35,360 nucleotides of DNA from Minisyncoccia bacterium (GTDB lineage: Bacteria > Patescibacteriota > Minisyncoccia > UBA6257 > HR35). Of this stretch, positions 517-35,360 are shown piece after piece. The DNA is taken from the NCBI GenBank assembly GCA_049970635.1, contig JBMFMO010000002.1:1-35360 (forward strand), given 5' to 3'. The notes beneath the pieces are model-generated. The model was not told the origin of the DNA. It did not search any database and was given only the letters and a program-made list of their open reading frames with translations. A program made the translations under genes and the position numbers. Position 1 is the first letter of the stretch. Each line of letters opens with the position of its first letter.

Positions 517-678
517 TTATCTTCTTGATTCTTTATGTTTTGTGTGTTTTTTGCACCACTTACAAAATTTTTTTAATTCAAGTTTTTTTTCACTTCCCTT
601 TTTCTTCCAAATAAAATAATTTACATGATTGCATTCACTACACTTTAATCTTATTAAATTTCTTTTTTTAACTGCCAT
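517..678 (-). CDS. rpmG: 50S ribosomal protein L33, C4 zinc-ribbon form
   Basis: Hand translation gives 53 aa: MAVKKRNLIRLKCSECNHVNYFIWKKKGSEKKLELKKFCKWCKKHTKHKESRR. This shows the typical L33 pattern with CxxC...CxxC. It is below the size cut-off of the supplied ORF track. Confidence 0.88.
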   Translation of the reverse strand: MAVKKRNLIRLKCSECNHVNYFIWKKKGSEKKLELKKFCKWCKKHTKHKESRR

Positions 679-693
679 TTTTTAATTTTAATC
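642..693. repeat. Direct repeat copy A, the functional rpmG 5' end plus upstream spacer
   Basis: The 52 nt at 642-693 match 916-966 except for one T in a homopolymer (7 T versus 6 T). Confidence 0.95.
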
Positions 694-915
694 TTATTAA
701 TATATTCTATTTAAAAAAATGATTTAAAAATCTTTGTTTTTGAATAAATTTTCATTTTAACAAGGGCCAGAAGATCAATTCATTATCTGCTGTTAATTGA
801 AGCCTTCCCCAGGGTTTGTGTTGAAAAATAATAGGTAAATCTAGATATCAAAAAATGCTTATAAAATCTTGTTTTTGTTAATTCCGACGTTTTTATTTAA
901 AATTTTTATTACAAA

Positions 916-966
916 ACTTTAATCTTATTAAATTTCTTTTTTAACTGCCATTTTTTAATTTTAATC
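916..966. repeat. Direct repeat copy B, abutting and overlapping the murA stop
   Basis: These 51 nt match 642-693. They include the last murA codon plus stop (gat taa on the minus strand), a 9-nt spacer and the first codons of rpmG. Confidence 0.95.
928..951 (-). pseudogene. Truncated, frameshifted duplicate of the rpmG start (MAVKKEI*)
   Basis: ATG at 951-949 is followed by the same codons as rpmG. One fewer A in the A-run shifts the frame into a TAA at 930-928. Confidence 0.8.
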
Positions 967-2211
967 AAATCTTTGGATTTTTGCTCCTAATTTTTTTAAT
1001 CTTTCTTCAATTTTTTCATAACCCCTATCAATTTTTTCTGCTTCTTGGATAATTGTTTCACCACTTGCAACTAATCCTGCAATTATTAATGCTATTCCAC
1101 TTCTTATATCTAAAGATTTTACCTCCTTTCCTTTTAATGGTGTTGGTCCTATAAATATTGCTCTATGTGGGTCTAAAATCTCTGCATTTGCTCCCATATA
1201 TATAAGCTCATTAACATAAGAAAATCTATTTTCATATAACCAATCATGAATTAATGTTACTCCTTTTGCTTGTGTTGCTAAAACACCAAATGGTGGCTGC
1301 ATATCTGTTGGGAATTTTGGATGAAGCCCTGTTTGAATCTTTGTACCTACAATATCTGATGGAAAAACTTTTAAAGAATTTTTTCCCAATTCATATTTTA
1401 TTTTCATTTCATCCATTAATATAAAAAGTGCATCTAAATCTTCTTCTTTTATATCTAAAATCTCTATCCTACTTCTTGTTGCTGCTGCTAATGCTACAAA
1501 TGTTCCTGTTTCAATTTGATCTGGTGGGATTTTAAATCTTATATTCCTTTTTATCTTTTCTCTTCCTTCTATTTCTAAAAAATGTGTGCCTATACCTTTT
1601 ATTTTAACTCCTAATAATTTTAAAAACAAGCATAAACTAACAACATGGGGTTCTATTGCTGCAAGCCTTATTTTAACCCTTTTAGGAATCAATGATAAAA
1701 ATAAAAGAAGGGTTTCTGTTGCTGTAACACTTATCTCTTTTAATCTTACTTCATAAGATTTCAATTTTCCAAATCTTCCTTCTAATGCTTCATTTGTTTT
1801 TATCTCGCAGCCTAAATTTTTTAATGTGTTAATGTGAACATCTATCGGCCTTGCCCCTATTATATCTCCTCCTGGTCTAAACATCTTAACTTTCTTAAAT
1901 AATGCTAACATTGGCCCCAAAAATAAAATTGATGCCCTAAGTTTTCTAAATGCATCGATCCTACAATCTTCATAATGAACCTTTTCAGAATTAATAATTA
2001 AACTATTATTTTGCCATTCAATTTCAGCACCTAAATGTTTTAATATCTCTATAATAACAAAGACATCAGCAATTTTAGGTACATTATCTAATATTGTCCT
2101 TCCCTTATTTAAAATTGATCCAACAAGTATAGGAAGTACAGCATTTTTAGAGCCTCCAACCTTTATTTTCCCAGATAATTTTTTACCACCTTCTATTAAA
2201 AAATATCCCAT
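961..2211 (-). CDS. murA: UDP-N-acetylglucosamine 1-carboxyvinyltransferase
   Basis: 416-aa ORF. N-terminal GGSKNAVLPIL, HPKFPTDMQ and IDRGYEKIEERL blocks align with E. coli MurA. The active-site loop reads RPGGDIIGARPIDVH. Confidence 0.93.
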   Translation of the reverse strand: MGYFLIEGGKKLSGKIKVGGSKNAVLPILVGSILNKGRTILDNVPKIADVFVIIEILKHLGAEIEWQNNSLIINSEKVHYEDCRIDAFRKLRASILFLGPMLALFKKVKMFRPGGDIIGARPIDVHINTLKNLGCEIKTNEALEGRFGKLKSYEVRLKEISVTATETLLLFLSLIPKRVKIRLAAIEPHVVSLCLFLKLLGVKIKGIGTHFLEIEGREKIKRNIRFKIPPDQIETGTFVALAAATRSRIEILDIKEEDLDALFILMDEMKIKYELGKNSLKVFPSDIVGTKIQTGLHPKFPTDMQPPFGVLATQAKGVTLIHDWLYENRFSYVNELIYMGANAEILDPHRAIFIGPTPLKGKEVKSLDIRSGIALIIAGLVASGETIIQEAEKIDRGYEKIEERLKKLGAKIQRFD

Positions 2212-18900: not shown

Positions 18901-19146
18901 TTATGGTGTTGGTGGTGTTGGTGTAGCTTCTCCAGGCGCTGGTGGTGTAGGTGGTGTAGGTGGTGTTGGTGGTGTTGGTGGTGTTGGTGGTGTGACTTCT
19001 CCACCTGGAACAGTTGGAGCTGTTGGAGCTGTTGGAGCTGTTACAGCACCTCTTTGTCTAACATAATACCAAGCAATTGCACCTAAAACTATTAAAATAA
19101 TTATGACTATAATTGCAGCTGTTGTATTCTTTTTTTGACCCTCCAT
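18901..19146 (-). CDS. Small membrane-anchored Pro/Thr-rich protein
   Basis: 81 aa. An N-terminal TM anchor (AAIIVIIILIVLGAIAWYYV) is followed by (APT)3 and (PPT)n tracts. These are encoded by 9-bp tandem repeats at 18941-18994 (6 units) and 19013-19039 (3 units). The gene has its own promoter and leader motif. Confidence 0.6.
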   Translation of the reverse strand: MEGQKKNTTAAIIVIIILIVLGAIAWYYVRQRGAVTAPTAPTAPTVPGGEVTPPTPPTPPTPPTPPTPPAPGEATPTPPTP

Positions 19147-19217: not shown

Positions 19218-19289
19218 TAGGCGGGGCAGGACTCGAACCTGCAATCTTCTGCATGTGAAGCAGATATTTTACCCTTAAACTACCCGCCC
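19218..19289 (-). tRNA. tRNA-Val (anticodon CAC)
   Basis: 72-nt cloverleaf on the minus strand. Acceptor GGGCGGG/CCCGCCT (G1:U72), anticodon stem TCTGC/GCAGA with loop TTCACAT, T arm GCAGG-TTCGAGT-CCTGC, discriminator A. The D stem is weak (GTTT/AAAT). Confidence 0.8.
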
Positions 19290-19307
19290 TATTTTAACTC
19301 AACTTTT
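19280..19307. repeat. Direct repeat copy A: tRNA-Val 5' end preceded by a relic of the last rplL codons
   Basis: The 28 nt ctacccgccctattttaactcaactttt are identical to 19493-19520. Confidence 0.95.
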
Positions 19308-19492
19308 TTATCTTTATATAAAAATTATATTAAAACATTATTGATTTTTCCGATTTTTTTATCTAATAGGGCAAGATGAGGAATAGAAAATTTTATCCTC
19401 CGCTCTAAAAGTAAAGTTTGTTCCTTAAATAAAAGTTAAAAAATGCCATTCTAATAATAATTTTTAAATAATATCCTCTATTTAAATCGAAG

Positions 19493-19520
19493 CTACCCGC
19501 CCTATTTTAACTCAACTTTT
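19493..19520. repeat. Direct repeat copy B: the real rplL 3' end followed by a relic of the tRNA-Val 5' end
   Basis: Identical 28-mer. On the minus strand it reads AAA GTT GAG TTA AAA TAG GGCGGGTAG. That is rplL ...KVELK-stop followed by the first 10 nt of tRNA-Val. Confidence 0.95.
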
Positions 19521-19873
19521 CCTCCTGCTTTTTCTATCTTTTCTTTTATCTTTTCTGCCTCACCTTTATCTATATTTTCTTTTATAGTTTGTGGTAAATT
19601 ATCAACAATATCCTTAGCTTCTTTTAGGCCAAGATTTGGATTTATCTCTCTCAGTGCTTTTATAATATTAATCTTATTTTCACCACAATCAGTTAAGATA
19701 ACATTTACTTTTTGAGGTGCTTCTTCAGTAGGAGCTGATACTGGTGCTTGTGGTGCTTGGAATATTGCACTAGAAACACCAAATTCTTTTTCTAATTCCT
19801 TTATCAATTCATTTAATTCAACGACTGTTAGGTTTTTTATCTCTTCTATAATTTTTTGAATCTTTTCGCTCAT
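19502..19873 (-). CDS. rplL: 50S ribosomal protein L7/L12
   Basis: 123 aa with an N-terminal dimerisation helix, an Ala/Pro hinge (QAPQAPVSAPTEEAP) and a C-terminal domain containing GLKEAKDIVD. Confidence 0.95.
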   Translation of the reverse strand: MSEKIQKIIEEIKNLTVVELNELIKELEKEFGVSSAIFQAPQAPVSAPTEEAPQKVNVILTDCGENKINIIKALREINPNLGLKEAKDIVDNLPQTIKENIDKGEAEKIKEKIEKAGGKVELK

Positions 19874-20451: not shown

Positions 20452-20460
20452 ATATTATAG

Positions 20461-20533
20461 TCGGGGGACCGGGATTCGAACCCGGGATCTCGTGCTCCCA
20501 AAGCACGCATGTTAGCCGCTACACCATCCCCCG
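20461..20533 (-). tRNA. tRNA-Pro (anticodon UGG)
   Basis: 73-nt cloverleaf. Acceptor CGGGGGA/TCCCCCG, anticodon stem CGTGC/GCACG with loop TTTGGGA, T arm CCGGG-TTCGAAT-CCCGG. Confidence 0.9.
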
Positions 20534-20534
20534 G

Positions 20535-20606
20535 AGGCCGGGGTGGGAATTGAACCCACGTAAAAGGGTTTTGCAGACCCTTGCCTAGCCACTCGGCCAC
20601 CCGGCC
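20535..20606 (-). tRNA. tRNA-Cys (anticodon GCA)
   Basis: 72-nt cloverleaf. Acceptor GGCCGGG/CCCGGCC, anticodon stem AGGGT/ACCCT with loop CTGCAAA, T arm GTGGG-TTCAATT-CCCAC. The discriminator U is typical of tRNA-Cys. Confidence 0.85.
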
Positions 20607-22586: not shown

Positions 22587-22604
22587 TCCGATTATTAAGA
22601 ATTA

Positions 22605-22632
22605 TTTCTTATTAATTATTGAAAGCACAACT
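22605..22632. repeat. Direct repeat copy A, a relic of the MurE-like 3' end
   Basis: ttattaattattgaaagcacaact matches 22845-22868. On the minus strand it still reads ..VVLSIINKK-stop. Confidence 0.85.
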
Positions 22633-22832
22633 ATTTTTAGAGATTTTTTAGATTTTAGATTGTATATTTAAAATAATAATTAAAATAAAGAATTTTTTTC
22701 ATTTAAAAGATTTTTACTTTAAGCTTAGAGTGGATGCTTTAAAAATTTTAATTTAACCTTAAAAGAAAAAAGTTTTATTTATATTATAAAAATATAGTAA
22801 AATTCTATGTTTTTTAAATCTTAACTTTTAAA

Positions 22833-24176
22833 TTATCTCTTTTTATTAATTATTGAAAGCACAACTTCTTTTTCGTTCCATGGAATAGATTCATCTTTCA
22901 TTTCTATTGTTGGCTCTGCTCCTTTCCCAATTAAAACAACAATGTCATTTTTTTGAGCTTGATTTATTAAATATTCTATTGCTTCTTTTCTATCTTCAAT
23001 TATTTTATATGGTTTTTCAAAATCATATTCAGCTATATATTTTTTAATTCCTATTTCAATGTCTTTCATAATTTTTTCAGGATCTTCATCAAATGGATCT
23101 TCATTTGATATAACTATTAAATTACAATATCTTGCTGCTATTTCTCCTATAACAGGTCTTTTCCATTTATCTCTGTGCCCTCCTGCTGAGCCTATTAAAC
23201 ATAAAAGCCTTGATGGTTTAAATATATTCCAAATATTTTTATAAAGTTCTGAAATAGAATCTGGCGTATGTGCATAATCTATAATAACCTTAAAATTTCT
23301 TCCTTGAATTACTTCAAAGTGTCCTGGTAATGGCTCGCACTCTTTCAAAATATCTTTTACACTTTTTATAGGAATATTCAATGCTTTTAAAACACTCAAT
23401 GACGCTAAGATATTATATAAATTTTGTTTACCTATCAATTTTGTCTCATAAACTGTATCATCTTCATTTAAGATAAAATTAGTCTTTTTTTGAAACATCT
23501 TATATTTTGTAATCTGTAAATGATTGTGAATTCCTGGCTTCCCTTCTAACCCAAATGTTATTTTGTTTTCTGCTGGAAAAGATAGGAAATAATCTCCTTC
23601 AAAATCATCATAATTTACTATAATTGTTTTTCTAACATCTTGACCCTTAAAATTTTTTCTCTTAGTTTTTAATAAATTTTTAAAAAGTTTTGCCTTTGCT
23701 TTTTTATAATTTTCGAATCCTTTATGATGCTCTATATGCTCTGGATGTATATTTAAAAAAACTGCTATATCAAAATCTATAAATTTATCTCTATTTTGCA
23801 TCAAGCCCTCTGATGTAACTTCTATAACAGCTACTTCACAATTATTTTCAACTGCTGAATTTAAAAATGATTGCAAAAACCATCTCCCCGGCATTGTTAT
23901 CCTACTTAAGTTTTCTTTTTTTTCTTCTCCTATATAAAAATATTGGGATGAGCTAAGTGCTGTTTTTATTCCTAATTTATTTAATAGATAATAGATTAGA
24001 TAGCAGGTCGTTGTTTTCCCCTTTGTTCCAGTAACCCCTATCACAACAATTTTTCTACTTGGAAATTTATATCTTATTGCTCCTGTTAATGCCCAAAGAT
24101 AATGGTAAAAATTTAAAACTGGATTTGGTATATATCTTCTTATTTTTTTAAAAAAATCAATTATTTTCTCCTTCAT
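22833..24176 (-). CDS. Mur ligase family protein, MurE-like
   Basis: 447 aa. P-loop GVTGTKGKTTT, EVTSEGL, HPEHIEHH, DYAHTPDS and GGHRDKWKRP blocks are collinear with MurE. EDPF replaces the DNPR motif. Confidence 0.8.
   Translation of the reverse strand: MKEKIIDFFKKIRRYIPNPVLNFYHYLWALTGAIRYKFPSRKIVVIGVTGTKGKTTTCYLIYYLLNKLGIKTALSSSQYFYIGEEKKENLSRITMPGRWFLQSFLNSAVENNCEVAVIEVTSEGLMQNRDKFIDFDIAVFLNIHPEHIEHHKGFENYKKAKAKLFKNLLKTKRKNFKGQDVRKTIIVNYDDFEGDYFLSFPAENKITFGLEGKPGIHNHLQITKYKMFQKKTNFILNEDDTVYETKLIGKQNLYNILASLSVLKALNIPIKSVKDILKECEPLPGHFEVIQGRNFKVIIDYAHTPDSISELYKNIWNIFKPSRLLCLIGSAGGHRDKWKRPVIGEIAARYCNLIVISNEDPFDEDPEKIMKDIEIGIKKYIAEYDFEKPYKIIEDRKEAIEYLINQAQKNDIVVLIGKGAEPTIEMKDESIPWNEKEVVLSIINKKR
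22841..22868. repeat. Direct repeat copy B, the real 3' end of the MurE-like gene
   Basis: The same roughly 24-26-nt sequence, 236 nt from copy A. Confidence 0.85.
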
Positions 24177-34664: not shown

Positions 34665-35136
34665 AAAATATTATAAAGCATTTAAGGGATTTTCAATAAT
34701 AGAGATGATGGTTGTATTATTGTTTTTTGTTGGCCTAACTATTCTTTTAGCATCAAGGCCATTTTCCTTATCTTCTGAATATCAAATTGTGCAACAAGAT
34801 GCAAAAAAAATAAAACAAATTTTAGATACTGCAAGAGAAAAAGCAATAATGAATGAGAAGGGTGTAAACTGGGGAGTTTATCTTGTTGGAAGCTCTTCAA
34901 CATACTATATTTTTGCAGGAGATAATTTTAAAGAAGCTATAGAATATACTCCATATTTTTTAGATTCTTCAAATATATTTTTAGATCCTGCAAGTGGAAC
35001 AGTAAAAGAGATAGTTTTTCAAAGATATAAAGGTTATGCAACAAATACACAAATAGAAATAGGTTTAAAAAATAAAAATATAAAAGCAAAAGTAAAGATA
35101 AATTATTTCGGAAATATTGATTTTGAGATTTATTAG
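34654..35136 (+). CDS. Type IV pilin / pseudopilin with a class III signal peptide
   Basis: KAFKG|FSIIEMMVVLLFFVGLTILLA is the prepilin cleavage/N-methylation motif, with Glu at +5. I prefer the ATG at 34654 to the TTG at 34642 used by the track. Confidence 0.8.
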   Translation: MTIKKYYKAFKGFSIIEMMVVLLFFVGLTILLASRPFSLSSEYQIVQQDAKKIKQILDTAREKAIMNEKGVNWGVYLVGSSSTYYIFAGDNFKEAIEYTPYFLDSSNIFLDPASGTVKEIVFQRYKGYATNTQIEIGLKNKNIKAKVKINYFGNIDFEIY

Positions 35137-35360
35137 TTTATAATTATAAAGATGAAGAAGGTAATAATTTATACAACAAGTTATTGCCCATTTTGCCAAA
35201 TATTGATTTTGAGATTTATTAGTTTATAATTATAAAGATGAAGAAGGTAATAATTTATACAACAAGTTATTGCCCATTTTGCCAAATATTGATTTTGAGA
35301 TTTATTAGTTTATAATTATAAAGATGAAGAAGGTAATAATTTATACAACAAGTTATTGCC
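35112..35360. repeat. Perfect 86-bp tandem repeat, 2.9 or more copies, running off the window edge
   Basis: Units at 35112-35197, 35198-35283 and 35284-35360 (partial) are identical by eye. Each unit holds the last 8 codons (including stop) of the pilin gene, a 15-nt spacer and the first 46 nt of a glutaredoxin-like gene. Confidence 0.95.
35152..35229 (+). pseudogene. Truncated glutaredoxin/NrdH-like start (MKKVIIYTTSYCPFCQ...) created by the tandem repeat
   Basis: The ATG at 35152 gives MKKVIIYTTSYCPFCQ, then runs into the repeated pilin 3' end (ILILRFISL-stop). A second identical copy lies at 35238-35315. A third begins at 35324 and continues beyond the window. Confidence 0.7.

Follow-up and report, generated by a model that had tools for sequence, protein, structure and literature searches.

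Integrative elements that target tRNA genes encode an integrase, insert at a single specific site and, as a rule, duplicate the 3′ part of the tRNA. In MITEs the ends are terminal inverted repeats and the duplications are short and of fixed length (2-10 bp), while the ectopic integration of CRISPR spacers by Cas1-Cas2 duplicates a target of ~28-30 bp, also of fixed length, upon the insertion of ~33-38 bp of DNA. Variable direct repeats, ranging from 8 to 514 bp, have been described for IS1549 and IS1634 (PMC2266710), which belong to the IS1634 family and are related to IS4. According to that 2008 review, the long and variable duplications of the IS1634 type have no mechanistic model (PMC2266710). 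In another context, protein-mediated looping has a known signature, a helical periodicity in how far apart the boundaries of an element lie, which arises when a complex must hold both ends on one face of a short and stiff DNA; it is seen in the helical-twist experiments with transposon ends and in the sizes of Paramecium IESs (PMC3464196).

The locus considered here lies in a window of 35,360 nt (the whole stretch of DNA that was analysed), which is the entire contig C2 of a genome of 730 kb with 27.6% GC, assembled in 164 contigs and 97.7% complete. In it, the junction between rplL and tRNA-Val is present on both sides of a short AT-rich stretch. The locus belongs to a set of small insertions, specific to this genome, that are accompanied by long duplications of the target, and no described family accommodates it.

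The duplicated rplL/tRNA-Val junction

The features of the locus are the following.

19218-19289, minus strand: tRNA-Val(CAC), intact (ARAGORN; Rfam RF00005, 68.6 bits)
19280-19307, minus strand: tRNA-side copy of the repeat, in which a non-functional duplicate of the rplL end with its stop codon (19290-19307) precedes the real first 10 nt of tRNA-Val
19308-19492, no strand: insert of 185 bp, 21% GC, non-coding
19493-19520, minus strand: rplL-side copy of the repeat, in which the genuine end and stop of rplL precede a non-functional duplicate, 10 nt long, of the 5′ end of tRNA-Val (19493-19502)
19502-19873, minus strand: rplL (bL12), 123 aa, intact, with its TAG stop at 19502-19504 (from the list of open reading frames)

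All genes at the locus are on the minus strand and, read in their direction, the end of rplL and its TAG are followed by nine tRNA bases, 185 unrelated bases, the end of rplL with its stop once more and, finally, the complete tRNA. The two copies are identical over 28 nt (19280-19307 and 19493-19520) and can be extended to 31 nt with one mismatch (19277-19307 and 19490-19520); their starts are 213 nt apart, which leaves the 185-nt insert between them. The first G of tRNA-Val is the G of the rplL TAG stop, so that gene and tRNA overlap by 1 nt, and the 18 nt that precede the real tRNA-Val correspond to the five final sense codons of rplL and the TA of its stop. The assignment of the rplL product to the bL12 family comes from Atlas features and structure, and its identity with the rplL of 17 relatives ranges from 45 to 69%. 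The neighbours are rplL, an rplJ-like gene and a small membrane-protein ORF, with no integrase near 19218-19873.

When ten third-order Markov versions were generated from the 59 contigs of at least 3 kb, each contained only 0-1 pairs of 20-mers or longer at spacings of 100-800 nt, and a chance origin of the 28-nt repeat is therefore excluded. The preliminary description of this DNA had reported the junction as duplicated in the form of an identical 28-mer around a 185-bp insert, and the exact 28 nt, their spacing of 213 and the comparison with chance bear it out. It had also placed the first 10 nt of the tRNA after the rplL stop; the 10-nt copy is indeed present, but only nine of its bases follow the stop, the G being shared.

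Downstream of tRNA-Val, at 18901-19146 on the minus strand, there is an 81-aa ORF with one hydrophobic N-terminal segment and a Pro/Thr/Ala-rich tail encoded by 9-nt tandem repeats. A small ORF resembling it is found directly after rplL in at least six relatives.

The junction in other genera

The region was matched in 19 of 40 relatives, and the rplL loci of 17 of them, all from genera other than that of the host, were inspected. In one (G001), tRNA-Val(CAC) begins at the G of the rplL TAG (offset -1), with nearly identical last codons, and in three others (G003, G012 and G031) it lies 9, 23 and 27 nt past the rplL stop. In G036 the distance is 927 nt, and in the remaining 12 of the 17 no tRNA-Val was called within 1.2 kb downstream of rplL, one of them running off its contig inside a tRNA-like start. 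As the uninterrupted junction occurs in G001, the 185 bp are an insertion and the derived state. The comparison of sequences thus supports the interpretation of the 185-bp stretch as an insertion flanked by the duplicated junction. The proposal that the tRNA ancestrally started at the rplL stop is likewise upheld by the abutting junction of G001 and by the gaps of 9-27 nt in three more relatives; for rplL/tRNA-Val, the test of comparative synteny that had been suggested along with it found the uninterrupted junction in G001 among the 17 relatives. At a second duplicated junction of the window, murA and rpmG were non-adjacent in all five relatives searched.

The 185-bp insert

The insert contains no ORF of at least 20 aa, no Rfam match at E <= 1 beyond two chance-level rows and no fold signal (z -0.95). 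Two weak quasi-palindromes of A-tracts and T-tracts, similar to the motif described below, are located near 19329-19359 and 19432-19472. A consensus scan around rplL/tRNA-Val found six promoter-like sites, against 4.1 +/- 2.2 in shuffled sequences, and a scan for terminators found no terminator-like site within the insert. With promoter-like sites at the level of shuffles and an insert free of terminators, tRNA-Val may be reached by read-through from rplL. Within the genome the insert is single-copy, its next-best match being 36 AT-rich nt (E 1e-4). No match was obtained by blastn against phage and plasmid records, nor among the 40 relatives, where matches fell on rplL and the tRNA only.

Nineteen duplications at gene boundaries

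A scan of the genome for two-copy direct repeats returned 19 cases of the same build, including that of rplL/tRNA-Val. The repeats are 24-134 nt long (24-69 nt in 17 of the 19), 12 of the 19 pairs are 100% identical, and the inserts measure 185-271 bp with a GC content of 13-23%. Attempts to lengthen the repeats by gapped alignment gave ambiguous results in this AT-rich DNA, with credible extensions in a few cases only (C16, C23 and C4). Three cases are in the window (copies starting at 642/916, 19280/19493 and 22609/22843), the two further ones being as follows.

642-967, minus strand: junction of the murA stop and the rpmG start, ~52 nt with one 1-nt indel, duplicated around a 222-bp insert (694-915); spacing 273-274
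22599-22872, minus strand: 3′ end of a gene of 447 aa, duplicated exactly over 24 nt (or over ~42 nt if a 2-nt indel is allowed) around an insert of ~200 bp upstream of tRNA-Leu; spacing 234

Empty sites were reconstructed in silico by deleting the insert and one copy of the repeat, after which genes were called again; the 19th locus, at a contig start, was left out. In 18 of the 18 reconstructed sites, the end of a gene or tRNA falls inside the repeat or at most 27 nt away from it. The boundaries are of every type: they lie between genes in tandem or in convergent orientation, between a gene and a tRNA that diverge, between a gene and the tRNA that follows it, and at two tRNA-Thr genes. Both neighbours are intact at nearly all loci, the C-terminus being altered at two (C5:6531 and C23:5018). 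At tRNA-Thr TGT and CGT (C1:33994-34364 and C13:4608-4981), the duplicated part consists of the 22-26 nt upstream and the first 33 nt of the tRNA, up to the anticodon loop, and the inserts, of 256-261 bp, are related to each other (spacings of 316 and 315).

These results do not support the earlier view of the locus as an integrative element at the 5′ end of a tRNA. What is duplicated is a gene junction, made of 18 nt of rplL and 10 nt of tRNA, and a tRNA-targeting element does not agree with 18 more duplications at protein-protein, convergent, divergent and gene-tRNA boundaries, with the lack of an adjacent integrase or with an insert of only 185 bp. The presence of ~19 insertions in one tiny genome points instead to a kind of small mobile element that has not been described.

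Kinship among the inserts

Some inserts are clearly related. Those at C1:11600, C4:6669, C16:4396 and C22:6198 are 77-86% identical over ~200 nt, the pair at the tRNA-Thr genes is 70% identical over 216 nt, and those at C5:23704 and C15:6948 are 81% identical over 165 nt. Comparison of the family-3 inserts for circular permutation revealed just a core of 165 nt that they have in common in a shifted position. None of the 19 inserts was found to have conserved or inverted ends. Many of them have in common a quasi-palindrome of A-tracts and T-tracts of ~40 nt; a profile of this motif, built from 17 instances, finds ~20 sites in the whole genome, nearly all within the inserts, and reaches E < 0.01 in 13-14 of the 19, often twice. 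The match is weak (9.5 bits) in the insert before tRNA-Leu. The motif is also seen in two ordinary-looking intergenic regions without flanking repeats (C10:11266-11403 and C23:3213-3299), which may be old insertions with decayed duplications, or else the motif may have a function for the host.

In the rplL/tRNA-Val insert the profile scores 5.0 bits (E 0.2). This insert aligns over ~160 nt with that of C15:6948-7162 (z 5.3) and over ~50 nt with that of C11:9647-9869 (z 5.2), both values from 40 dinucleotide shuffles. As the motif match is not significant, its membership of the family rests on the architecture and on a z of ~5 from 40 shuffles, and we regard it as a probable, diverged member of the class.

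Inserts of the same family have diverged from each other by 15-22%, whereas the two repeats around each of them are 97-100% identical. Given these values, and unless the repeats have been homogenised, the copies of a family are not recent copies of one another. Additionally, the C16 copy contains a segment resembling the start of dnaK, from the flank of another copy, and the target at C16 shares ~14 nt with that segment. This flank segment and the divergence of families relative to the identity of repeats are easier to reconcile with recombination, or with read-through into a flank, than with clean cut-and-paste transposition.

Searches for the class elsewhere gave the following results. In a closed genome of the same family (G007), no comparable class was seen by eye among the 35 pairs listed, three short pairs (10185, 244014 and 443042) being set aside. 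The motif pattern had no match in 185,579 species-representative genomes, and the exact 28-mer had none in JGI metagenome contigs, where a degenerate pattern of the junction gave two chance matches with neither tRNA nor rplL. The family-1 element, compared with 24 genomes of the host's family, produced short AT-rich matches only.

Open frames fused to duplicated gene starts

Where inserts lie just inside the starts of genes (dnaK and two mreB-like genes), the duplicated start and the first 11-13 codons continue, in the same reading frame, into ~70 open codons within the insert. These start-sharing frames are C1:11618-11884 (minus strand), C4:6637-6900 (plus strand) and C22:6158-6403 (plus strand), to which C5:23713-23934 (minus strand) can be added. 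The frame of ~70 codons is open in all four copies of the family despite a GC content of 18%. Substitutions in the family-1 frame are evenly spread across codon positions; consequently, coding constraint was dropped as an explanation, and selection on the protein is not demonstrated. A profile of the insert ORF, when run against two large protein libraries, matched the genome's own proteins only, and the ORF corresponds to no Pfam family and has no match in viral contigs.

Periodicity of the spacing

The distances from copy to copy at the 19 loci are 210, 213, 234, 251 (twice), 253, 254, 273 (three times), 274 (twice), 275 (twice), 292, 315, 316, 379 and 390. This spacing, which is the sum of insert and repeat, is periodic at ~20.5-21 bp with a resultant length of 0.84, and its harmonic at 10.5 bp reaches 0.73. 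Neither insert lengths nor repeat lengths have such a periodicity when taken alone, and the inserts have no internal periodicity of 21 nt. Random re-pairing of insert and repeat lengths reached the observed periodicity in 0 of 2000 trials, and uniform draws did so in 0.05% of cases, a value that takes 15 events as independent and scans periods of 8-60. The two lengths are correlated (Spearman 0.54, p 0.018), and even numbers of helical turns dominate, with seven of the eight size classes. Five exact 77-nt repeats at contig ends, with spacings of 138, 172, 177, 457 and 594, are off this lattice.

The quantised length is either the closed path of a two-ended joining to staggered target cuts or the circumference of a circle that carries one copy of the repeat. 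A lattice of ~10.5/21 bp is what would be predicted for DNA that has to be looped by a protein complex.

Proposed mechanism and candidate enzymes

On balance, we favour a family of small non-autonomous elements, specific to this genome, whose integration duplicates long stretches of the target, represented at rplL/tRNA-Val by an AT-rich element of 185 bp; our confidence in this reading is moderate. According to it, a short, non-coding, AT-rich element would integrate where tRNA-Val abuts the rplL stop, the two target strands would be cut ~28 nt apart, and filling of the overhangs would duplicate the junction, as a result of which both rplL and tRNA-Val would stay whole. Integration would probably be concerted and two-ended, carried out by a protein complex that loops the element together with a segment of the target. 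Such a loop would also explain why insert plus repeat, and not either of them alone, falls on the helical lattice. Gene boundaries, at which a long duplication spares both neighbours, would presumably be the only places where copies persist. Recombination between the copies of the repeat would be expected to lead to precise loss, so the insertions would be short-lived.

A more specific version of this proposal is tentative, and we consider it possible without giving it the same credit. It postulates an undescribed class of elements of 185-271 bp, with no inverted ends and no mobility gene, that integrate at gene boundaries with duplications of 24-134 bp and that pass through a torsionally constrained mini-loop, which would set the spacing in steps of one to two turns. 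Some copies would, in addition, capture the ribosome-binding region of a gene and its first 11-13 codons to translate an orphan frame of ~70 codons.

Regarding the enzymes, an IS1634-family insertion sequence is found at C55:1570-3220, beside the gene for an AMP-binding enzyme, with a 476-aa transposase and inverted ends of 29 bp. Its transposase is the only complete one of the IS1634 family in the genome bin (NF033559, 152 bits, cut-off 100). DDE fragments were also observed on C138 and C101, contigs of higher GC that are possibly mis-binned. The C55 element itself has no long direct repeat, and the inserts lack its 29-bp inverted ends. As the C55 copy is without a long repeat and its ends are not common to the inserts, we take its transposase as a lead. 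No match to a reverse transcriptase or to a Y1 HUH transposase was obtained in the genome, which leaves retro-type and IS200-type routes without a candidate enzyme. The genome also contains six tyrosine-recombinase matches, CRISPR arrays with repeats of 30-31 nt and Cas1, the latter on contig C17 together with Cas2.

Alternative explanations

The periodicity bears on more than one model. In a Campbell-type alternative, which we find unlikely, a circle of 213 bp carrying a 28-bp copy of the junction would enter the chromosome by a single crossover, and the spacing would be its circumference. Ring closure of short DNA predicts precisely that insert plus repeat is quantised and the insert alone is not; the spacing is held at 273-274 within one insert family, the inserts have no defined ends, and the C16 copy bears a piece of donor flank with which its target shares ~14 nt, all of which would suit such circles. 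However, looped two-ended integration gives the same periodicity, and nothing is at hand that would supply circles each already carrying the boundary of its own target. Furthermore, the repeats are specific to each locus and exact over up to 108 nt, and the assembly contains no circle or tandem form. The remnant of a larger, site-specific integrative element, most of it deleted, with the 28-mers as attL/attR cores, is still less probable. Identity blocks of this length do flank integrated elements, tRNA genes are common targets, and the genome has six tyrosine-recombinase matches. By contrast, a site-specific enzyme would not duplicate nineteen different boundary sequences, and random internal deletions would erase the helical quantisation of the spacing and the range of 185-271 bp in which all inserts fall. 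Neither is there an integrase near 19218-19873, and the duplication covers the tRNA 5′ end and the sequence upstream of it, not the usual 3′ part.

A different kind of objection is that the insert, or one of the junctions, is absent from the cell and arose during assembly. The class comes from one draft genome in 164 contigs, with graph artefacts at contig ends (the exact 77-nt repeats), and it is absent from every other record searched. Nevertheless, the repeats at 17 of the 19 loci, being 24-69 nt long, are shorter than the apparent assembly word of 77 nt, and each of these junctions would therefore need words that were really contained in reads. The inserts are unique sequences in diverged families, not mosaics of the genome; all are located at gene boundaries, with the neighbouring genes spared; and their spacing has a helical period, for which we can conceive of no computational cause, whereas the 77-nt repeats of contig ends do not lie on that lattice. 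We consequently give an artefact only a small chance. The evolutionary fluidity of the junction, where four of the 17 relatives have short rplL/tRNA-Val spacers and 12 have other arrangements, could be taken to suggest that the 185 bp are an old native spacer and that the 28-mer was generated later by local gene conversion or slippage. This is very improbable, as none of the 17 relatives has a comparable spacer, the insert is unmatched in the 40 relatives searched, and 18 other loci of the genome are built in the same way. A small insertion with a long target duplication thus remains our preferred reading of the locus.

Other repeats and boundaries

At the end of the contig, positions 35112-35360 are occupied by three identical units of 86 nt, which may be a genuine tandem repeat or result from a loop in the assembly; exact repeats of 77 nt are present at the ends of other contigs. 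Directly 3′ of tRNA-Phe, at 255-463, there is an array of ~28-nt units built on a CCGCGGAT-like core, and similar arrays are found on C6, C9, C12, C19, C26, C96 and C131. At 20460-20606, on the minus strand, tRNA-Pro and tRNA-Cys share base 20533 according to ARAGORN and are one base apart according to Rfam. This contact is a further sign of the extreme compaction of gene boundaries.

Implications and comparison with known systems

If the insertions are real, DNA has entered a genome with almost no intergenic space while sparing its genes, the long target duplication rebuilding both neighbours. That the sum of insert and duplication is helically quantised would then amount to a natural helical-twist experiment that constrains the integration machinery. 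The duplications of junctions also give rise to false starts and ends of genes and to tRNA fragments, by which gene calling and the analysis of synteny in reduced genomes will be misled.

As in integrative elements that target tRNAs, a piece of tRNA is duplicated on either side of the inserted DNA and the tRNA stays functional; here, however, the 5′ end and upstream sequence are duplicated, there is no integrase, and 19 unrelated sites are involved. Ectopic integration by Cas1-Cas2 also duplicates a target of ~28-30 bp, and the host genome has both Cas1 and CRISPR arrays, but the inserts are of 185-271 bp and the duplications of 24-134 bp. Spacer integration was in fact rejected for the rplL/tRNA-Val locus, as an insert of 185 bp does not correspond to array periods of 65-72 nt on repeats of 30-31 nt. 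The inserts resemble MITEs in measuring a few hundred bp, in being (nearly) non-coding, intergenic and present in many copies, and in having target duplications. They differ from them in the lack of inverted ends and in duplications of 24-134 bp. An identity as MITEs was discarded, the 19 inserts having neither conserved or inverted ends nor any similarity to the ends of the C55 insertion sequence.

With the IESs of Paramecium, the loci share a short insert bounded by a direct repeat and a helical-repeat periodicity between boundaries, which in Paramecium is interpreted as looping of the DNA within a transposase-like complex (PMC3464196). Those elements are eukaryotic, mostly intragenic, flanked by a 2-bp TA repeat and subject to programmed excision, whereas those described here are bacterial, have long repeats and are located at gene boundaries.

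The IS1634-type elements are 1.5-2 kb long and have their own transposase and inverted ends, in contrast to the inserts of 185-271 bp without inverted ends. An element of that family was rejected as the identity of the rplL/tRNA-Val insert, which has 185 bp and no ORF of at least 20 aa, in a genome whose only full transposase gene is on C55. In any case, IS1634 and IS1549 are the only bacterial insertion sequences that we found documented with long, variable direct repeats, the property that is observed here at 19 loci with repeats of 24-134 nt, and the loci, if real, offer a handle on why elements of the IS1634 type make long and variable duplications.
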